In this document: in pieces, positions 57,506-64,000 of the stretch
Position numbering within the stretch: the stretch's first letter is position 1
Layout of the letters: each line of letters starts with the position of its first letter
Assembly: GCA_045863235.1 (NCBI GenBank)
Contig: BTUM01000045.1
Location: 1-64,000, forward strand
DNA length: 64,000 nt
From: Candidatus Xenobia bacterium
Lineage (GTDB): Bacteria > Vulcanimicrobiota > Xenobia > Xenobiales > QWHO01
Direction: 5' to 3'
Made by a program: the position numbers and the translations under genes
The notes under the pieces: generated by a model
What the model was told of the DNA's origin: nothing
The model's input: only the letters and a program-made list of their open reading frames with translations
The model's database searches: none

Positions 57506-59329
57506 GTGAACTGTCCATCCTGTCATCAGGGCGTAACGGCGGCCAACCGCTTCTGTCCTCACTGCGGCGCGGCGCTCTCCTTGCTGTGCCGAAAGTGCGG
57601 TGCACCGCAGGCCCAGGGGGCTCGATTCTGCCGAGAGTGTGGCACGACCCTGGAGGAGGAGGCGCCCCCACCACCACCGCCTCCGCCTGTCGTTGCCCCG
57701 GTGCACTGCCCCGGGTGCGGCGCCGAGGAACCCCCCGGAGCCCGCTTCTGTAAGGCCTGCGGGACCCAGCTGGGGGTTCCCGCTGCCGTTCCCACGCCCC
57801 CGACCTCGATCAACTGCCCCGCCTGTGGCGCCGAGGAACCTCCCGGAGCCCGCTTCTGTAAGGCCTGCGGGGCTCCGCTGGGGGCAACTCCCCCGCCCGG
57901 CGAGACTCCCGCCGTTGCCTCGATCCACTGCCCCGCTTGTGGTGCCCCGGAGCCCCCGGGCGCACGCTTCTGCAAAGCCTGCGGCGCTTCTCTGGAGGCC
58001 CCCACGGTCGCCCCCCCGGCCCCGCCCATACCCCTGGAATCTCCGACCTGCCCCAAATGCGGCGCCCAGGAGCCCCCGGGAGCCCAGTTCTGCAAAGCCT
58101 GCGGCACCCCCCTGACGGGCGAGCCTGGCCCATCCACGCTCCCAATCGATGAGAGCGAGCCGCTGGCCTGCTCGGACTATGTCCAGGAGGTGGTGGCCCG
58201 GACGGCAGCCGGAGCCGGCACGGTACGCGCCGGGGGAGCCCTGATCGGCAACCTGCAGAGAGCCCGTCAGGACCCCTCGCTCCTGCTCCAGACGGTGTCG
58301 ACGGGAAAGCTGGGCCAGCTGACCCGCGGGCGACTGAACCTGGCGGAAGTGCTGGCCGTCCTCCTCAGCTTGATGCTCCTGGTCGGCTTCTACGCCTTCG
58401 GCCTCTACAAGTTCGGCTGGCAGGCCATGATCCAGTCGGGGACTCCCCTCTTCATGGGCTATCTGGTGGCCCTGGTGGTAGGGCTGGCCACCCTGCGAGG
58501 CCCGCTCGACCGCCTGCTGGCGCCGGTCTTCCAGCTTCTGACCAGAATCCCACCCAAGACCCGGTTCGTTCTGGGTCTGGTGGCTCCGGCGCTCTGGTGC
58601 ATCTATGACAGCGCCGACGTGGGCAACGGGTTCTGGCACGCCGGCAAAACCGTGACCATCGCCACCATGCTGGGACACGTGCTGCTGCGCTCGGTGGACT
58701 ACAAGCCACCCGCGGGCGCCCCGGCGCCCCCTCCCGTGCCCGCTTCGCTGGTCGTCCTGGGGCTGGTCTTTGCACTTCGCTCGCTGGGCTGGGCTGACGA
58801 CTGCAGCTCGCCGGAAGACGCCATGGATACCTCCTGGATCGGTCCTCCCATCAAGGGCCTGGTTTCCACCATCATCAGCGCTGCCGTCAACGGACAGACG
58901 GTCATGACGAAGATCCTCAAGCCACCTGGAGACAAGCCGGCCGATCCCAAGGAAAAGCCCCCCTTCTATCGGCTGAACCTCAATACCCAGAACCGTCGCA
59001 CCGATCTCGAGCTGGACGGAGAGGGACTCTGGGTCTATGCCTGGGTGCAGGTCGTGAACCCACCTCCCGGTTTCGACGCCGCTGCGGCCACCGATTCCAT
59101 CGCCTTCTCGGCCGACGACAGCCTGAGCCTGTCGGCTCCTCAGGCCGCGGGCGGGCGCAAAGCCGTCTACGTCAAGGGCGTCACACCGCCCGGCGGCGAA
59201 GCGGCCACCAGCGGAACCCTGGCAGCCTCCGTCATCCTGGCCGGGCAACCCGTGAGAGCTTCGGTGAGCTTCCAACTCGCAGCGGGATACGAGCTCGTGG
59301 TCAACGCCAGCTCGGAGTGGTCCGGGTAA
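57506..59329 (+). CDS. Membrane protein with six N-terminal zinc ribbons
   Basis: CPxCGAxEPPGA(R/Q)FCKACG x4 plus two more ribbons; about five TM helices; beta-rich C-domain. Confidence 0.8.
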   Translation: MNCPSCHQGVTAANRFCPHCGAALSLLCRKCGAPQAQGARFCRECGTTLEEEAPPPPPPPPVVAPVHCPGCGAEEPPGARFCKACGTQLGVPAAVPTPPTSINCPACGAEEPPGARFCKACGAPLGATPPPGETPAVASIHCPACGAPEPPGARFCKACGASLEAPTVAPPAPPIPLESPTCPKCGAQEPPGAQFCKACGTPLTGEPGPSTLPIDESEPLACSDYVQEVVARTAAGAGTVRAGGALIGNLQRARQDPSLLLQTVSTGKLGQLTRGRLNLAEVLAVLLSLMLLVGFYAFGLYKFGWQAMIQSGTPLFMGYLVALVVGLATLRGPLDRLLAPVFQLLTRIPPKTRFVLGLVAPALWCIYDSADVGNGFWHAGKTVTIATMLGHVLLRSVDYKPPAGAPAPPPVPASLVVLGLVFALRSLGWADDCSSPEDAMDTSWIGPPIKGLVSTIISAAVNGQTVMTKILKPPGDKPADPKEKPPFYRLNLNTQNRRTDLELDGEGLWVYAWVQVVNPPPGFDAAAATDSIAFSADDSLSLSAPQAAGGRKAVYVKGVTPPGGEAATSGTLAASVILAGQPVRASVSFQLAAGYELVVNASSEWSG

Positions 59330-59333
59330 GTCG

Positions 59334-60245
59334 TCAGTCCGCGGCCTGGATGAGCAGGTCGGCCACGGCCGCTGCGATGGGCTGGCCGGTGCGGTCCTCA
59401 TACCAGGCGAACGCGGGGGAAGGGTTGACCTCGAAACAGTAGGCCTTGCCTTCCGGGGTGAGGCGCAGGTCGATGCCGGCCAGCACCAGTCCCAACGAGG
59501 CCGCCACGTTTCGGCAGGCCACGGCCAGCTCTTCGGGAAGCTCGCAGGGCTCGAGCTCGGCGGCCTTGTCGTAGCGGTAGTCGCTCTCGCTGGCCAGGAT
59601 GCGGGTGGGAAACACGTGCTCGTCCACCACGTGCACCCGCACATCCACGCCCTCAATCCGTTCCTGAATCTGGATGGGACAGTTCTTGAGGGTGTCCAGC
59701 CGGTCGAGATCCTCTTCCTTCATGACCTGAACGATGGAGCGGACGTAGCTGATGGATTTGTAGATGGCCTGGCCGTTCACGAAGTCGTAGAAATCGCGGG
59801 CCGTCTCGGGCAGGTTGGTCACCATGGTCTTGGGGATGGCCAGCCCCAGCTCCTCCACCAGGGCGATCTGGTGGGGCTTGGAGGCGTTGCTGCCGGAGGC
59901 CACCGGGCGATTGATCACCAGCCCCGGATGACAGTTCAGCCAGCCGTGAAAGGCGCTCTGACACTCGTAGTTGACGAAGGCCACCTCGTCGGGCGAGTAC
60001 TCCTTGTAGACCTCGAAGTTGGAAAAGCCCACCCGGTGGTAGACGGCCCGCACATCGGCCAGCTCGAGCGGTTCGCCCTCGGGGAAGAAGAAGGCTCCCT
60101 CGCGCTCGGGCAGCTTCAGCTCGAAGCGAACGGTGTTGGGGACCTCCTCGCTGTTGAGGCGCACGAAGGGGTGCGAGCGCGCCTGGAGGGCGGCCCCCAC
60201 CGAGCGCATCATGGGATCGCTGAGGGGTCCGAAGAGGAGAATCAC
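59334..60245 (-). CDS. RimK/graspetide-synthetase-like ATP-grasp ligase, intact motifs
   Basis: NASKPHQ, IPKTMVTN, IYKS, QERIEGVDVRVHVV, DYRY, GIDLR, FEVNP; GTGA-coupled start at 60245. Confidence 0.88.
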   Translation of the reverse strand: MILLFGPLSDPMMRSVGAALQARSHPFVRLNSEEVPNTVRFELKLPEREGAFFFPEGEPLELADVRAVYHRVGFSNFEVYKEYSPDEVAFVNYECQSAFHGWLNCHPGLVINRPVASGSNASKPHQIALVEELGLAIPKTMVTNLPETARDFYDFVNGQAIYKSISYVRSIVQVMKEEDLDRLDTLKNCPIQIQERIEGVDVRVHVVDEHVFPTRILASESDYRYDKAAELEPCELPEELAVACRNVAASLGLVLAGIDLRLTPEGKAYCFEVNPSPAFAWYEDRTGQPIAAAVADLLIQAAD

Positions 60246-61117
60246 GAGACTGGCTCCTGCTCGAGCAGGGCACAGGCCGCCTCCAGGACGTGAGGCTGGC
60301 CCAGGGCCTCGGGCGAGAGAAACGTGCGCAAACCGGTCACGATCCACTGCGACCCCAGCTGCCTGAGGGAGAATTCGGCCAGTTGCAGGGACAGAAAACG
60401 GCACACCAGGGTCACGCCCTCCAGAACCTCAGGGGGCGGCGGGGTTCCCTCGGGCAGTTGGAAGAACAGCCCGCCCACGACGGCCAGACGGCAGGCCCAG
60501 CCTTCCGGCATCTCCTCGTAGTGCACCGGACAGAGGGTCAGCCGGTGGAGGTTATCCAGGTCCTCGGGGGAGACCTCGCGGAAGACCGGAGCAGTGCCTG
60601 CCACGGGCTTACAGATCACCCGGCCAGCCAGGCTCTCGTAGAACTCGCGGGCCGACTCGGGGCGACTGGTCACCAGGGTCCTCGGCACCGCCAGGCCGCA
60701 CTCGCAGAGCAGGTTCAACTCGGCCCAGCGGGAGGTGAGGTAGTCGCGACGCACCACGTGGTTGGCCACCAGGCAGTGACGAGAGAGCTGGTGAAACATG
60801 GAGATCAGACAGGCCCAGCTCTCGGTCTGCAGATACTGGGCGTCCTGGGCGGAGAACTCGGTGAGCCCGGCCGGTGAAATGACGAATCCGTCCAGGGCCA
60901 CGCTGCACAGGTCGGTCAGGGAGAGCTCTTCCTGGCCGAGCAGCAGGGCCCCGTGCAGGCCCCGCCCCACCTTGAGGTAGATCCCCACCGAGAACGGAAA
61001 GTTCTCCTGCAAAATGAACAGGCTGCGGCGGCGGCCTCGCCGGGTCAGGCCCTGGTGCAGCAAGCCCAGGGAAGGGTTGTCAGCGCTGCCGTAAAGCAAC
61101 ACCGTCGGGTCAGCCAC
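60242..61117 (-). CDS. Degenerate ATP-grasp paralogue (probable pseudo-enzyme)
   Basis: VPRTLVTS, ICKP, CPVHYEE are retained; DVR, DYR and EVN motifs are lost. Confidence 0.75.
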   Translation of the reverse strand: MADPTVLLYGSADNPSLGLLHQGLTRRGRRRSLFILQENFPFSVGIYLKVGRGLHGALLLGQEELSLTDLCSVALDGFVISPAGLTEFSAQDAQYLQTESWACLISMFHQLSRHCLVANHVVRRDYLTSRWAELNLLCECGLAVPRTLVTSRPESAREFYESLAGRVICKPVAGTAPVFREVSPEDLDNLHRLTLCPVHYEEMPEGWACRLAVVGGLFFQLPEGTPPPPEVLEGVTLVCRFLSLQLAEFSLRQLGSQWIVTGLRTFLSPEALGQPHVLEAACALLEQEPVS

Positions 61118-61185
61118 CGAGTTTCACCCCATGCATCCTCTGGCAGGGTGCGCGAGGGCCTGGCCCAAAACCTGCGTCCGTCCCG

Positions 61186-62586
61186 TCAGACGAAGAAGCG
61201 GCTCGACGGGGCCGCCGTGGCCAGGCGCGAGTCCAGCGGAAGAACTTCAAGGTCTTTCTCGAGCAAGGATTTCTCCAGCACGGCGACCTTCTCGAAGAAT
61301 TTCTCGGAGGGCTGCTTCTCCAGGCCCAGCTTTTCAGGAGCAAACTTCTCGATCTGCTTCTCCTGGCCGAGTTTCTCGGGAGCGAACTTCTCGATCTGCT
61401 TCTCCTGACCGAGTTTCTCGGGAGCGAACTTCTCGATCTGCTTCTCCTGACCGAGTTTCTCGGGGGCGAACTTCTCGTTCTGCTTCTCGAAGCCCAGCTT
61501 CTCGCCCGGTTCCTTCTCGAAGCCCAGCTTCTCGGGCTGCTTCTCCGGACCGAGCTTCTCGGGAGCGAATTTCTCCAGCTGCTTCTCGGCGGGACCCTTC
61601 TCGATGCTCTGCTTCTCGACCGGGCCCTTTTCGGGGGCAAATTTCTCGATCTGCTTGTCGCCCTGCTTCTCGAGCCCCAGCTTCTCAAACGGGTCCTTGT
61701 CGGCGCGGAACTTCTCGATCTCCTTCTCGGCCGGTCCCTTCTCGAGGCTCTGTTTCTCGAACGCGCCCTTCTCCGGGGCAAACTTCTCGAAGGGGAACTT
61801 CTCGTTGCCCTGCTTTTCGTAGGGCCCCTTCTCGACGTTCTGCTTTTCGACCGGGCCCTTCTCGGGGGCAAACTTCTCGACCGGAACCTTCTCGCTACCC
61901 TGCTTTTCGACCGGGCCCTTCTCGACGTTCTGCTTCTCGACCGGACCTTTCTCGGGGGCGAACTTCTCGACCGGAACCTTCTCGCCGCCCTGCTTTTCGT
62001 AGGGCCCCTTCTCTACGTTCTGCTTCTCGACCGGGCCCTTGTCCGCCTGAATCTTCTCGAGCTCTTTCTCGCCCAGCTTCTCGGCCGCGCCCTTCTCGCC
62101 TTGCTTCTCGTAGCCGCTCTTGTCGGCCTGAATCTTCTCCAGCTCTTTCTCCTGGCCGAGCTTCTCACGGCCCTTCTCGCCCTGTTTCTCGTCGCCGAGC
62201 TTCTCGCGAGTCAGCTTCTCACCTGGATTCTTGTCCTCACGGAACTTCTCCAGCTCCTTCTCCTGGGTACGCTTGTCGGCTTCCTTCTCGGCATACTTCT
62301 CGCGCGAGCGCTTCTCGAGCTCGCCCTTCTCGCCAAAGCTCTTCTCGGGGGCCAGCTTCTCGTGGACGCCCTTTTCGTCCGTGCCCTTCTCGCGGGCGTA
62401 CTTCTCGTTGCTCTTCTCGGCCAGGAGTTTCTCGGGGTCGTACTTGCGCAAGCTCAAGTCGATCTGGTCCTGAGCCGGGGGAGCCTGACCGGGTCCTGAA
62501 ACCGGTGGCGCGGTCAGGGAACGCAGGGGGGCCTGAGGACCTCCGACGGCGGGACGAAACTCGGGACGAATGAAGAGGTCAGCCAT
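61186..62586 (-). CDS. EK-repeat protein, putative ATP-grasp substrate/precursor
   Basis: ~50-aa leader (MADLFIRPEFRPAVG...), 83 [E/D]K-x2-4 units by manual count, short tail. Confidence 0.85.
   Translation of the reverse strand: MADLFIRPEFRPAVGGPQAPLRSLTAPPVSGPGQAPPAQDQIDLSLRKYDPEKLLAEKSNEKYAREKGTDEKGVHEKLAPEKSFGEKGELEKRSREKYAEKEADKRTQEKELEKFREDKNPGEKLTREKLGDEKQGEKGREKLGQEKELEKIQADKSGYEKQGEKGAAEKLGEKELEKIQADKGPVEKQNVEKGPYEKQGGEKVPVEKFAPEKGPVEKQNVEKGPVEKQGSEKVPVEKFAPEKGPVEKQNVEKGPYEKQGNEKFPFEKFAPEKGAFEKQSLEKGPAEKEIEKFRADKDPFEKLGLEKQGDKQIEKFAPEKGPVEKQSIEKGPAEKQLEKFAPEKLGPEKQPEKLGFEKEPGEKLGFEKQNEKFAPEKLGQEKQIEKFAPEKLGQEKQIEKFAPEKLGQEKQIEKFAPEKLGLEKQPSEKFFEKVAVLEKSLLEKDLEVLPLDSRLATAAPSSRFFV
61345..62040 (-). 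repeat. Nested intragenic tandem repeats: 42 bp x ~3 (61345-61476) and 90 bp x ~2.7 (61801-62040)
   Basis: Encode EKFAPEKLGQEKQI and EKGPVEKQNVEKGPxEKQGxEKVPVEKFAP. Confidence 0.85.
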
Positions 62587-62620
62587 GAAAGACACCCGGT
62601 CCTTGTTGCAGACTTTATCC

Positions 62621-62649
62621 ATTATCCCGACCGGAGCCAGGACTGTCTA
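62621..62649 (-). promoter_or_regulatory. Candidate sigma70 promoter TAGACA-N17-GATAAT for the EK/ATP-grasp operon
   Basis: 5/6 matches to both consensus hexamers; favours the ATG at 62586 over 62622. Confidence 0.55.
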
Positions 62650-62700
62650 GACCTGGAGCAACGCGCGATCGCTTTCTCCGCTGCGCTTGGCTCCAGGTCT
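62649..62700 (-). terminator. Hairpin after the GDPD gene
   Basis: 11-bp IR AGACCTGGAGC/GCTCCAGGTCT. Confidence 0.5.
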
Positions 62701-64000
62701 CAGCCAAACAGCCCTTTGAAGAACTTTCCGATCCCCTTGCCGATGCCGGAGAAGAAGCTGCCGATCCCCTTGCCGATGCCCGTGATCACCTGGCCGGCCC
62801 CCTTGAGCAGCCCCGAGCCGATCTGTCCCAGACCTTTGCCGATGTTGCCTTTGAAGATGTTGCTCACGCCCGAGCCGATGCCGTTAGCGGCCGTCTTGAG
62901 CCCCTGCCAGGTGCCGGTCACGGCCTGATCCACCCCCTTGACCAGGCCGTCCACGATGGGCTTGCCCAGGTTGTCAGCCACGAAGTTCATGGCTGTTCCG
63001 GCCCAGCCCAGGGGGTTGAAATCGCCGATGCGCACGTACTTGCCCAGGAAGTTGAGGGCCGTCCCCGGGGCACGCAGGGCGTGGTTGAGACCCGAGCCGA
63101 GCAGGTTGGCAGCCAGCGAGTGGGTGGGATTCTGCTCATAGCCGTAGTTCTTGCGCACCTCGGCCACGGTCAACTCGTCGATGCGCTTGCCGCGGGCGTC
63201 CGAGCCGATGTCGGGGAAGATGGGGCGCCAGTCGTTGGAGGCCTCCAGCCCCAGGTTGCGGGCCATGGAAACGGTAACATTGTTGGGATTGTTGTCATGG
63301 AACACAACAATTCCGTCCTTCGCCGAGGCGATGTCGATCTCGATGGCGTCGGAGGATTTGAAGCCCGCCTCCATGGCCGGCAGGGTGTTCTCGGGGTAAT
63401 TCTTGGAGTTGGGGCCGCCCCGGTGGGCGATCACCTCGGGGCGACGCGGATCCTGTCCGGCCTTACCATAGCCCATCTGGTCCAGGGTGCGGTTCATGGC
63501 CGCCGGGTCGTCGGTCAGCACTCCATTGGCCCCAGCCTGGACCACCTGGCGAATCTTGTCCTGATCGTTGAGCGTCCAGGCGATCACCTTCTTACCCTGG
63601 TGAGGGCTGCCCGGGCGGTCGATCTCCTGGCGGGCCTTGCGCACCTCCTCCACCAGGTCGCCGAAGTTGTTGGAGGTGAGCGGGTTCTTGGGATCGCCGA
63701 TGGAGACGTAGCGGTTGTCCCCGCTCCCGGTCAGGGGGCTGCGCTCGGCGGCGGAGGGGTTGCGGTCGTTGAGATGCTCGTTGTCCAGGGTGAAGTTGCG
63801 GAAGTCCTTGAGGTTGGGATCTTTGGCGAACTCCTGCTTGATGGCGTCGAGGTTGGACTGCTCTTTGTTCATGATGACCACGCGGTCCTTGAGGTCGGGG
63901 TATTGCTTGAACAGCTCGGACAACTGGCTGCCCAGGCGCCGGGCCACGTTCGGGTCGTCAGAGGTTTTGGTGTCCAGGTAGATCTTTTTGTCAGGATACC
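62700..64000 (-). CDS. Glycerophosphodiester phosphodiesterase-like protein with amphipathic Gly-rich tail, 5'-partial
   Basis: Frame open to the window edge; IYLDTK, AWTLND, GVLTDDP, then AHRGG, PENT, IEIDI, VFHD. Confidence 0.8.
   Translation of the reverse strand, partial: YPDKKIYLDTKTSDDPNVARRLGSQLSELFKQYPDLKDRVVIMNKEQSNLDAIKQEFAKDPNLKDFRNFTLDNEHLNDRNPSAAERSPLTGSGDNRYVSIGDPKNPLTSNNFGDLVEEVRKARQEIDRPGSPHQGKKVIAWTLNDQDKIRQVVQAGANGVLTDDPAAMNRTLDQMGYGKAGQDPRRPEVIAHRGGPNSKNYPENTLPAMEAGFKSSDAIEIDIASAKDGIVVFHDNNPNNVTVSMARNLGLEASNDWRPIFPDIGSDARGKRIDELTVAEVRKNYGYEQNPTHSLAANLLGSGLNHALRAPGTALNFLGKYVRIGDFNPLGWAGTAMNFVADNLGKPIVDGLVKGVDQAVTGTWQGLKTAANGIGSGVSNIFKGNIGKGLGQIGSGLLKGAGQVITGIGKGIGSFFSGIGKGIGKFFKGLFG

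Follow-up and report, generated by a model that had tools for sequence, protein, structure and literature searches.

The 64,000-nucleotide stretch of DNA analysed here (the window) carries on its reverse strand a three-gene cassette that is best explained overall, and with reasonable confidence, as a graspetide-type protein-stapling system, in which a giant Lys/Glu repeat protein is predicted to become a ladder of Lys-Glu rings. The host is a soil or sludge bacterium (Xenobia-type) of Eremiobacterota, a little-known phylum represented almost entirely by metagenomes. The type of chemistry and the relatives of the enzyme are already known, and what appears to be new is an N-terminal leader, a giant stand-alone repeat and a protease-free form. 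The genes form a self-contained unit in the order precursor, gene A, gene B, with the following features.

62621..62649, reverse strand: promoter-like site TAGACA-17-GATAAT, sigma-70-like, 10/12 matches, consensus match only
61186..62586, reverse strand: precursor (substrate) gene, 466 codons plus TGA, 52.6 kDa, pI 5.9, start set by homologues
62551..62586, reverse strand: N-terminal motif MADLFIRPEFRP, residues 1-12, putative docking role
62446..62550, reverse strand: variable Pro/Gly/Ala-rich leader linker, residues 13-47, only length and composition notably conserved
61246..62445, reverse strand: repeat array (K-x2-3-[E/D])n, residues K48 to E447, 83 possible Lys-acid pairs
61189..61245, reverse strand: C-terminal tail VLPLDSRLATAAPSSRFFV, conserved [S/T]-x-R-F-F end, from precursor comparison
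61118..61185, reverse strand: 68-bp intergenic spacer, precursor gene to gene A
60242..61117, reverse strand: gene A, 291 aa, predicted catalytically dead ATP-grasp paralogue (hhalign, predicted structure, lost catalytic columns)
59334..60245, reverse strand: gene B, 303 aa, predicted intact graspetide-type ATP-grasp ligase (TIGR04187 and PsnB similarity, invariant catalytic residues)

The original prediction described an EK-repeat gene followed by two ATP-grasp-fold genes, and this arrangement is present, together with the 68 bp between the precursor stop and the GTG start of gene A (61117) and the GTGA coupling of the two downstream genes, which overlap at 60245..60242. The candidate promoter corresponds to the one sigma-70-like site detected in 59000..63000 (0.2 expected from shuffles), a match to consensus only. 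The precursor reading frame first reported (61186..62622) also exists, but its start was probably misplaced by 36 nt; the ATG at 62586 (MADLFI...) is likelier because homologues from the same genus have no upstream ATG and the -10 hexamer overlaps that codon. The neighbours of the cassette in the window encode, according to domain search, a GDPD-domain protein and a zinc-ribbon membrane protein.

The precursor and genes A and B very probably constitute a substrate-enzyme cassette. In related genomes, an EK gene of the leader/tail type adjoins the A+B pair in 17 of 21 distinct cassettes, which span five families of the phylum and otherwise have unrelated neighbours; the remaining four comprise one with another EK-repeat protein, two cut by contig ends and one that has decayed. 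An EK gene also lies beside the pair in all 11 metagenome loci, although these loci and the MAGs are not independent evidence. The survey of homologue neighbourhoods for EK-rich reading frames, proposed earlier as a means of refutation, thus left the linkage standing. Across the whole 8.4-Mb genome, EK-dense reading frames number three among 52,419, all within its two cassettes. The notion that the EK-repeat protein is an unmodified, charged, low-complexity chance neighbour of an ATP-grasp pair acting elsewhere is hardly credible in the face of this linkage, the confinement of EK-dense reading frames to the cassettes and a docking motif common to sister-clade substrates, even though the precursor matches only low-complexity profiles (Extensin_1, HC2, histone H1-like), all below cut-off.

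Comparison of 18 loci revealed no shared gene besides the trio and, as had been anticipated, no conserved protease or transporter beside the cassette that could correspond to the leader-removal and export functions of RiPP clusters. The lack of a conserved leader protease or exporter indicates that the system is not a classical secreted RiPP. RNA-library contigs from two studies also carry the precursor gene; they are no more than a hint of expression, as such contigs cannot prove transcription.

Gene B is, by its sequence, an intact graspetide-type ATP-grasp macrocyclase of the PsnB/TIGR04187 kind. Among NCBIfam models it matches TIGR04187 (169.6 bits, E 9e-50; below the curated cut-off of 350), MvdC (113.6 bits, 1e-32) and MvdD (106.3 bits, 2e-30), the latter two also below their equivalog cut-offs, as against 46.2 bits for rimK_fam (E 3.5e-12; cut-off 143.4) and 24.4 bits for the S6-glutamate ligase model PRK10446. 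Its best solved relative is PsnB (7drm; 99.5 bits, E 1.8e-27), followed by AMdnB, MdnC and CdnC, versus 33.9 bits for RimK structures (E about 2e-07; 1.8e-07). The suggestion that the distal ligase is of graspetide rather than RimK type is borne out by these scores. All 15 orthologues compared retain R203, D222-Y223-R224, D259, E272 and N274; mapping onto PsnB equates R203 with Arg213 and D222-Y223-R224 with the DFR loop, while D259, E272 and N274 are presumably the Mg-binding triad, as in ATP-grasp enzymes in general.

RimK is the poly-glutamate ligase of ribosomal protein S6, which adds free Glu at the C-terminus and has no leader-docking substrate. Gene B shares with it the ATP-grasp fold, a protein substrate and a public name: orthologues are annotated as 'RimK family alpha-L-glutamate ligase', 'glutathione synthase' or 'alpha-L-glutamate ligase', and the Pfam RimK domain is detected in gene B (E 7.3e-09). 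If these names were taken at face value, gene B would add amino acids such as Glu or make a small molecule, with the EK protein at most a scaffold. Such a role is very improbable, given the much weaker similarity to RimK, the invariant Arg and D(F/Y)R loop of the PsnB type, and the leader-type docking motif conserved on the adjacent protein.

Gene A has no match in Pfam and only weak N-terminal matches in NCBIfam, but hhalign aligns it with the gene B family over its full length (probability 100, E 1.3e-38). It is confidently modelled as a full-length graspetide-macrocyclase fold (pLDDT 89.1), for which the top Foldseek matches are MdnC, PsnB, AMdnB, CdnC and PruB (TM about 0.75). Of 42 A-type sequences, 40 have lost the DYR loop by deletion; substitutions affect Q192, Q194, D201, H205, D259 and N274, and the position of E272 holds Gly, or Asp in 11. 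With these changes, gene A lacks the residues that bind Mg and ATP, the Arg that recognises Glu and the D(F/Y)R loop. The expectation of two ATP-grasp genes therefore holds with respect to both folds but not to two catalytic ligases, and since gene A appears catalytically dead, the cassette does not resemble the MvdC/MvdD pair of two ligases. Sequence and analogy suggest that gene A rather serves as a non-catalytic partner of gene B.

Both ends of the precursor are conserved. The motif [L/P]FI-x3-[F/L]R[P/T] is found at the N-terminus of 19/19 precursors, with M1, D3, L4, F5, I6, R11 and P12 invariant in 11 leaders, and [S/T]xR[F/M][F/L] lies inside the final seven residues of all 19, with P460, R463 and F464 of the tail (ending ...SSRFFV) invariant in the precursor alignment. 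Against three loci of the same genus, synonymous and nonsynonymous changes stand at 11:0, 5:0 and 11:1 over the first 24 codons and at 10:0, 8:0 and 15:6 over the final 45; leader and tail are both under purifying selection. As in graspetide systems, a precursor with a conserved recognition sequence (19/19) is encoded beside the ligase (17/21 cassettes).

Between these ends, the sequence of the 466-aa substrate is that of a disordered protein, and its AlphaFold2 model (8-row alignment) shows no confident fold (pLDDT 43.9, pTM 0.17). The longer reading frame 61186..62622 contains 84 [E/D]K dipeptides, of which one is at residue 2 and 83 are in the core. In the 466-aa form, the 83 units compare with a mean of 18.3 (sd 3.4, maximum 29) in 2000 composition-preserving shuffles, and they are spaced by five residues in 61 cases, four in 20 and six in one, in agreement with the number and spacing initially described. 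The core was also correctly said to be poor in Ser and Thr (12 and 4, respectively, versus 81 Lys in 409 residues). The ratio of Lys to acid is close to 1:1 across 393 residues, 83 of the 84 Lys can be matched with an acid of their own at +3 or +4, and Pro is present in 29 of 82 spacers. The composition is thus that of a graspetide core with Lys as donor and Glu/Asp as acceptor at fixed spacing. The array DNA includes tandem repeats of 42 bp x4.2 (61312..61488), 90 bp x3.4 (61736..62045) and 81 bp x2 (62038..62197). E-K adjacency is the most invariant feature of the repeats, which the ring model explains solely as a side effect of units placed in tandem.

The bonds formed are likely to be Lys-Glu/Asp amides, and a local topology, from i to i+3/i+4, is tentatively predicted for them. 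The array reads as a series of (K-x2-3-E/D) units, which the published enzymes MyxF and CorB close into Lys-Glu/Asp lactams, and its spacers of two and three residues imply that one enzyme would have to close two ring sizes. Intramolecular amides of other connectivity, either Glu(i)-Lys(i+1) 12-membered rings or bonds to the Lys of the next unit giving overlapping rings, are unlikely but would suit the best-conserved trait of the cores compared, Lys directly after an acid (898/952), and the variable spacer length of two or three. The array limits argue otherwise: in the window it begins with K-Y-D-P-E and finishes with K-D-L-E, and among the 19 arrays, an opening Lys without a preceding acid stands 3-4 residues ahead of the first acid in 14 (absent in five), while a closing acid follows the last Lys by 3-4 residues in 17 (absent in two), which fits units running from Lys to a downstream acid. 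In 765 of 935 cases, Lys is followed by its next acid at a distance of three or four residues, and in variants such as L-S-D-I-K the adjacency is lost while K-x2-3-acid persists. Furthermore, MyxF (PMC12848669) acts on tandem KxxEKxxE from N to C, closing Lys1-Glu4 and Lys5-Glu8 lactams in up to four units.

The same enzymes and substrate might instead join different molecules or distant units through Lys-Glu isopeptides, yielding a cross-linked polymer or gel as a structural material. The near 1:1 ratio of Lys to acid, the precursor without a predicted fold and the lack of a conserved exporter or protease would all be compatible with a network, as would the contact between Arg101 of the neighbouring PsnB subunit and a core Glu (bioRxiv 10.1101/2021.03.09.434688). 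Nevertheless, a random network offers no obvious reason for fixed +3/+4 spacing or for the K...E phase at both array ends, and the graspetide ligases described in the accessible literature all link residues within one peptide; cross-linking is somewhat less plausible still than the alternative connectivities.

In the preferred model of local rings, the docking motif would occupy the ligase's hydrophobic leader pocket, in the way that PsnB binds LFIEDL. Gene B, probably with gene A as a permanently asymmetric dimer, would use ATP to phosphorylate each Glu/Asp side-chain carboxylate, which the epsilon-amine of the adjacent Lys would attack to form an isopeptide (macrolactam) bond. Movement of the enzyme along the chain would leave a ladder of small rings of the type Lys(i)-Glu(i+3/i+4), about 83 at most, with a predicted loss of 18 Da per ring, about 1.5 kDa in all, and masking of the Lys residues. 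The fullest version of this model is speculative: a 52-kDa product with practically all Lys residues joined to neighbouring Glu, in about 80 successive isopeptide rings (over ten times the number in any described graspetide), by a hard-wired live/dead ATP-grasp heterodimer, which grips both end motifs (N-terminal LFI-x3-FRP and C-terminal RFF) and threads the chain processively. The outcome would be a protease-proof, covalently laddered biopolymer, new in kind, rather than a secreted peptide.

The system has precedents, as the enzyme clade and its K/E-rich substrates already feature, uncharacterised, in published surveys and tandem KxxE and KxxxD lactams have been published. In two ligase trees (83 and 82 sequences), the clade of the window's enzyme falls outside a 59-row clade of loci with a C-terminal motif (99 SH-aLRT; 99/98 in the more careful tree, in which the branch that has the Eremiobacterota enzymes to one side reaches only 31/31 support), and its nearest relatives among those sampled are these C-terminal-motif enzymes of branch 8/group 32 (38-43% identity). 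They likewise pair an active ligase with an inactive ATP-grasp paralogue, and their substrates are K/E-rich with an FI-x3-[D/E]LRP motif (PMC8939145; Carter et al. 2026, supplement 2) resembling the N-terminal motif of the window's precursor. However, their motif follows the K/E zone at the C-terminus, often on proteins of 500-1000 aa, whereas in the window the giant repeat stands alone and carries an RFF tail; a graspetide leader is reported to stay functional when shifted to the opposite peptide end. S8 subtilase domains occur in four of eight tested substrate proteins of the sister clade and were found in that clade only; the peptidase association of branch 8/group 32 is thus absent here, with no peptidase in or beside the Eremiobacterota cassettes. 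Makarova et al. 2022 (PMC8939145) report branch 8 without a precursor and describe its partner as truncated, unlike gene A with its modelled full-length fold. The literature examined contains no characterised member of either clade, and string search of the published dataset did not retrieve the N-terminal-leader, giant, protease-free form.

Three further described systems are also among the closest. The Corallotide system (CorA/CorB/CorC/CorD, graspetide group 15; Carter et al. 2026, PMC13097080) shares a TIGR04187-type ligase and an unusually large precursor with repeated Lys-x3-Asp units that yield Lys-acid isopeptides. CorB forms five such bonds on a precursor of about 22 kDa, requires a partner protein and renders the modified Lys trypsin-resistant (PMC13097080). 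On the other hand, it has five units versus about 83, Lys-x3-Asp rather than mostly Glu at x2 or x3, a Lys-hydroxylating 2OG oxygenase plus a beta-lactamase-like protein in place of the predicted dead ATP-grasp, and, as described, a distribution restricted to Corallococcus. In myxomiditide (KxxE)n, tandem units likewise create the E-K junction and consecutive Lys(i)-Glu(i+3) lactams, and the MyxD2 ATP-grasp is inactive alone, requiring partner ATP-grasps (PMC12848669); it differs in being a small microviridin-class peptide of two natural (up to four engineered) units with a PFFxRFx leader, four ligases all catalytic in context and a secreted protease inhibitor as product. Plesiocin (PsnA2/PsnB, group 2; bioRxiv 10.1101/2021.03.09.434688) shares repeated cores, the acid-recognising Arg and D(F/W)R loop, and a leader, LFIEDL, resembling LFIRPEF in the window, but contains Thr-Glu esters instead of Lys amides and four cores. 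PsnB is an asymmetric dimer with one loaded subunit (bioRxiv 10.1101/2021.03.09.434688), yet a homodimer of active subunits.

The product is most likely far larger than described graspetide-type products, as the predicted chain of small rings. If confirmed, it would be the largest known ribosomally made poly-macrocycle, formed by a single graspetide ligase capable of some 80 turnovers per chain, and the cassette would provide a natural case of a pseudoenzyme twin aiding a RiPP-type ligase. Public names would be corrected for orthologues currently annotated as RimK, glutathione synthase or hypothetical protein, and serial i to i+3/i+4 lactam stapling of a genetically encoded repeat may prove a useful tool. 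The model would also help to account for the substrates of the orphan 'branch 8' ligases of many phyla, for which the published survey found no precursor, and would provide a concrete, testable trait for Eremiobacterota.

The precursor gene, gene A and gene B form three co-oriented minus-strand genes in the window, and the proposed three-gene unit, with a 68-bp spacer followed by two GTGA-coupled genes and one promoter-like site upstream, was confirmed. Its features are as follows.

62649..62621, minus strand: promoter-like site TAGACA-17-GATAAT, 5' of the operon (1 found versus 0.2 expected)
61186..62622, minus strand: precursor ORF as first read, a non-repetitive head followed by 83 [E/D]K dipeptides
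68 bp, minus strand: spacer between the precursor gene and gene A
60242..61117, minus strand: gene A, with a GTG start
59334..60245, minus strand: gene B, with a GTGA overlap with gene A

The repeat ORF and its 83 units proved real, but the start originally assigned to it has to be revised. The homologues in the same genus begin with M-[A/S]-D-L-F-I and lack the upstream ATG, which in the window is overlapped by the -10 hexamer of the promoter-like site; the start was therefore moved to the ATG at 62586, most likely giving a predicted protein of 466 residues (52.6 kDa, pI 5.9). The plus-strand ORF antisense to the precursor (61131..62573, 480 aa, Ser/Arg/Pro-rich) was rejected as a gene and is regarded as a mirror artefact of the GAG-AAG-rich repeat codons. 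The convergent downstream gene (57506..59329, plus strand) encodes a 607-aa protein in which Pro-rich linkers join five to six double-zinc-ribbon modules in tandem (DZR, E 9e-41; Zn_Ribbon_1; DUF7577), with a hydrophobic part and then a non-repetitive part towards the C-terminus, and is not kept beside other cassettes. The upstream gene (62700..63998, minus strand), which runs off the window, gives split glycerophosphodiester phosphodiesterase (GDPD) matches and ends in a Gly-rich, KG-repeat tail (...GIGKGIGKFFKGLFG); its synteny with the cassette is limited to the three closest genomes.

Gene B matches NCBIfam TIGR04187 at E 9e-50 and 169.6 bits, and the MvdC and MvdD models also score far above those of RimK (46.2 bits), with all graspetide maturase and RimK scores lying below the curated equivalog cut-offs. 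Among proteins of solved structure, B is closest to PsnB (E 1.8e-27), AMdnB, MdnC and CdnC, with RimK reaching an E-value of only about 2e-07. Residues K123, K163, Q192, Q194, D201, R203, H205, D222-Y223-R224, D259, R261, E272 and N274 are invariant in 15 B orthologues, and D259, E272 and N274 are presumably the Mg ligands, as in ATP-grasp enzymes in general. When B was mapped to PsnB by HMMER alignment (chain numbering equals paper numbering plus 20), R203 was aligned with PsnB Arg213 and D222-Y223-R224 with the PsnB D(F/W)R loop. According to the PsnB preprint, Arg213 holds the ring-forming Glu and the D(F/W)R loop is essential (bioRxiv 10.1101/2021.03.09.434688); the PsnB leader pocket reported there (Tyr171/Arg192/Ile193/Leu196) corresponds to Y162/R182/L183/L186 of B. 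A RimK-like reaction, which the original prediction had kept as a glutamylation alternative and which public annotation implies, is a poor fit to both the model scores and the invariant PsnB-type residues. Judged by its sequence, B looks like a working graspetide ligase. Public records give B orthologues differing names: RimK, glutathione synthase or hypothetical protein.

Gene A has no match in Pfam and is matched weakly by NCBIfam maturase models over its N-terminal two-thirds only. Nevertheless, the A and B families align end to end in profile–profile comparison (probability 100, E 1.3e-38), and the AlphaFold2 model of A (pLDDT 89.1, pTM 0.85) matches MdnC, PsnB, AMdnB, CdnC and PruB at a TM-score of about 0.75, ahead of LysX and RimK. 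The catalytic columns were followed in 42 A-type sequences, comprising 14 from loci and 28 representatives that were found by scanning 1.84 billion proteins and that a score gap (179 to 126 bits) sets apart. The DYR loop is deleted in 40 of them, Q192 is changed to His and Q194 to Glu, D201, H205, D259 and N274 are replaced, and the E272 column holds Gly, or Asp in 11 sequences. Conserved residues specific to A include Arg at the K123 column and Glu at the Q194 column (each 41/42), and the hydrophobic leader pocket is largely kept. Full-length homology, a confidently predicted fold and the loss of the catalytic columns therefore make A look like a conserved, folded, catalytically dead twin of B. 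The initial claim of two ATP-grasp genes thus holds for the shared fold, but only B keeps the catalytic residues.

The 83 [E/D]K dipeptides of the 466-aa precursor compare with a mean of 18.3 and a maximum of 29 in 2000 shuffles, and successive units are spaced by 5 residues in 61 cases, by 4 in 20 and by 6 in one. At the DNA level the repeat is hierarchical (42 bp x4.2 with a 93 % match, 90 bp x3.4 and 81 bp x2). Repeat number varies freely between conserved ends, giving precursors of 188 to 561 aa across loci; near-identical loci (L118 and L119) differ by whole repeat units, and one 42-bp unit is exactly skipped in one RNA-library contig. All 19 precursors compared carry the N-terminal motif [L/P]-F-I-x3-[F/L]-R-[P/T] at residues 3–12 and, among their final seven residues, a C-terminal [S/T]-x-R-[F/M]-[F/L]. 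In comparison with three loci of the same genus, synonymous to nonsynonymous changes numbered 11:0, 5:0 and 11:1 over the first 24 codons and 10:0, 8:0 and 15:6 over the last 45; on these counts, both ends are considered to be translated and constrained.

Within the array, an acid precedes 898 of 952 core Lys residues, and the next acid after Lys lies at +3 in 290 and at +4 in 475 of 935 cases (17 precursors, near-copies included). The array opens with a Lys positioned 3–4 residues ahead of the first acid in 14 of 19 precursors (K-Y-D-P-E in the window) and closes with an acid 3–4 residues past the last Lys in 17 of 19 (conserved K-D-L-E). Owing to this phase at the array ends, (K-x2-3-[E/D])n describes the repeat better than 'EK plus spacer' does, and under the former reading 83 of the 84 Lys residues of the window's precursor have an acid of their own available. 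Lys-Glu bonds may instead form between molecules, cross-linking the protein into a polymer, or within the molecule with other connectivities; the constant +3/+4 spacing and the phase at the array ends favour local rings over both.

The fold predicted for the precursor is not confident (pLDDT 43.9, shallow 8-row alignment). A protein search with the leader only (residues 1–62) returned 38 candidates, none at E <= 0.01, and the whole-precursor search, which is unfit for sizing the family, gave three matches, of which two (P0001 and P0003) are family members, one of these named 'hypothetical protein'. The ESM Atlas look-up of the precursor gave no usable match, and the matches to Pfam Extensin_1 and HC2 and to an NCBIfam histone-H1-like model all fell below cut-off and were treated as composition artefacts. 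PADLOC returned no match for any of the three cassette proteins and so gave no indication of a known defence system.

Several precursors depart from the common design. An in-frame stop in one MAG (L022/L036) splits the precursor into 241 and 108 aa, while a near-identical metagenome contig (L115) reads through at this position (350 aa from the start); the stop reflects either a true nonsense allele or a discrepancy between the assemblies. A 412-aa variant (L033/L047, on contig C26 of genome G004) has (T/S)-E-K-D-P-N-E-K repeats followed by a non-repetitive domain of roughly 200 aa, which has no Pfam match, and a tail ending in ...SGRMFA. The precursors of two 2.5-Mb genomes of family f12 (L126 and L127) carry between the K/E repeats and the SSRFF tail a Met-rich hydrophobic stretch (...ELYMLMEMMMMLMMMMM...), which may be a membrane or aggregation segment.

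The EK gene might stand beside the ATP-grasp pair by mere coincidence, a notion that is contradicted by the linkage counts and by a whole-genome control. Of the 21 distinct cassettes counted in related genomes that pair an A-type with a B-type gene, 17 have a gene of the leader/repeat/tail type directly beside the pair, in 16 of these upstream on the same strand and in one downstream and convergent. In one further cassette (L046) the opposite strand encodes an EK-repeat protein of another kind, (x-E-K-G)n, which lacks the leader; two are cut off by a contig edge within gene A or shortly after it, and one locus (L034) is decayed, with B frameshifted and A absent. The EK gene was also present in all 11 metagenome-contig loci found with the A profile, several of which duplicate MAG loci. 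In the control, only three of the 52,419 stop-to-stop ORFs of at least 80 aa in the 8.36-Mb genome were EK-dense: the window's gene and, split between contigs C10 and C108, the two halves of one precursor that belongs to a second, paralogous cassette. The neighbourhood survey thus bears out the predicted linkage of the ligases to EK-rich genes. The earlier remark that neither a transporter nor a protease is part of the cassette also stands, since beyond the three genes no fourth is common to the 18 loci compared. The cassette is real and conserved.

The second cassette of this genome (L025; C108:21500..23830 and C10:3..776) encodes a B protein 54 % identical to that of the window. An assembly break within the repeats divides the precursor gene of this second cassette, leaving its 5' half on C10 and its 3' half on C108. 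At least four more ATP-grasp loci of the graspetide type occur in the genome (C57:1059..2908, an adjacent pair; C84:30540..31115; C53:44044..44931; and C148:8237..9175, which carries an in-frame TGA), and microviridin-like precursors with several cores are listed for Vulcanimicrobiota in the accessible part of a published RODEO table (PMC13097080). Across the phylum, the A profile was detected in 16 of the 401 genomes sampled, distributed over families f1 (4/4), f2 (6/16), f4 (2/3), f5 (1/1) and f12 (2/3), and was not detected in the genomes sampled in f15 (0/297), f20 (0/30) and f3 (0/19). Contigs with near-identical cassettes labelled 'uncultured Burkholderiales', 'Armatimonadetes' and 'Candidatus Nitrosotenuis' are probably mis-binned or mislabelled Eremiobacterota.

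Near-identical sequence was found in public runs labelled as sludge, bioreactor, wastewater and digester metagenomes; the window's stretch, whole or in part, occurs in 18 rows from 14 studies, with half its words or more in 5 rows only, and the DNA row that contains most of it may be the very sample from which the window derives. The precursor gene is present on contigs of three RNA libraries from two studies. In two runs of one study (X7 and X11) the covered bins fall almost only within 61038..62604, which corresponds to the precursor gene, and the contigs of the other study's run (X3) cover the flanks too. These contigs, which show neither strand, ends nor level and come from libraries in which DNA may be present, hint weakly at transcription of the precursor gene, perhaps at a higher level than that of A and B.

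Of the 80 ligase loci from other phyla that are nearest to B (38–50 % identity), nearly all carry an ORF with weak ATP-grasp similarity immediately 5' of the ligase gene, and most encode a K/E-rich protein with FI-x3-[D/E]LRP near the C-terminus, either stand-alone (250–320 aa, in Acidobacteriota) or as the tail of a 500–1000-aa protein; four of eight long proteins tested are S8 subtilases. At two loci from Nitrospira and gammaproteobacterial MAGs (L055 and L091), two successive long substrate genes precede one ligase pair, each ending in a K/E zone and FI-x3-ELRP. This sister clade matches branch 8 of Makarova et al. 2022 and group 32 of Carter et al. 2026. For branch 8, the portion of the text available describes the precursor as not predictable, peptidases as linked and a 'truncated' inactive ATP-grasp as typical, with a precursor search covering only proteins <= 150 aa (PMC8939145). 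The group 32 rows available in the RODEO table include K/E-rich precursors ending ...HFIPENLRPDL..., and the accompanying text, in the sections available, remarks only on diverse neighbouring proteases (PMC13097080). The f12 precursor starts with MTTGLFITSELRPDL and ends with ...SSRFF, and by its sequence this family bridges both designs, having the sister-clade motif at the N-terminus together with the SSRFF end. The window's enzymes fall outside the 59-row clade of C-terminal-motif systems (support 99 in a quick tree, 99/98 in a careful tree). Their own clade received an SH-aLRT of 91 in the quick tree, 23 in a second quick tree that left out the long-branch row L097 and 31/31 in the careful tree, where 32 % of the 200 bootstrap trees gave one origin; a single origin of the Eremiobacterota enzymes is thus compatible with the data and weakly supported.

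The enzyme class, the Lys-acid lactam chemistry and apparently also the enzyme clade are already in print. A string search of the RODEO table (PMC13097080 supplement 2), in an incomplete copy with cells > 400 characters cut, revealed no EK precursor with an N-terminal leader. A full-text literature search found no paper joining 'graspetide' with 'Eremiobacterota', and among the matches listed, none of the 'graspetide' papers since 2025 was, by title or abstract, on such a system. No published description was found of a stand-alone, leader-first, 52-kDa substrate of about 83 units, of a full-length but dead ATP-grasp twin as its constant partner, or of such a cassette without any protease or exporter.

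The mechanism proposed for the cassette is inferred from the literature on MyxF, CorB, PsnB and leader relocation. On KxxEKxxE, MyxF forms lactams that link Lys1 to Glu4 and Lys5 to Glu8, proceeding from N to C and on up to four units, and MyxD2, which is encoded in the same cluster, needs partner ATP-grasps for activity (PMC12848669). CorB, a TIGR04187 enzyme, forms five Lys-x3-Asp isopeptides on a 22-kDa precursor, requires a partner protein for full activity and leaves the modified Lys residues trypsin-resistant (PMC13097080). PsnB holds the leader segment LFIEDL via Phe15 (bioRxiv 10.1101/2021.03.09.434688), and a graspetide leader moved to the C-terminus stays functional (PMC13003496). 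Motifs at both ends occur in related subfamilies, at L060 and L076 (PFIPLQQR...NPFFIRP) and in the Streptomyces rows available in the published RODEO table (MIFIHPELRPDL...FIRPII; PMC13097080), and the RFF tail of the present precursors may serve as an additional docking site, perhaps one used by the second subunit. By analogy with these systems, the N-terminal LFI motif would dock the disordered substrate on the ligase, and B, probably with A as a fixed asymmetric dimer, would phosphorylate each Glu/Asp carboxylate. Attack by the Lys 3–4 residues upstream would then turn the precursor into a ladder-like chain with as many as about 83 small macrolactams (-1,495 Da).
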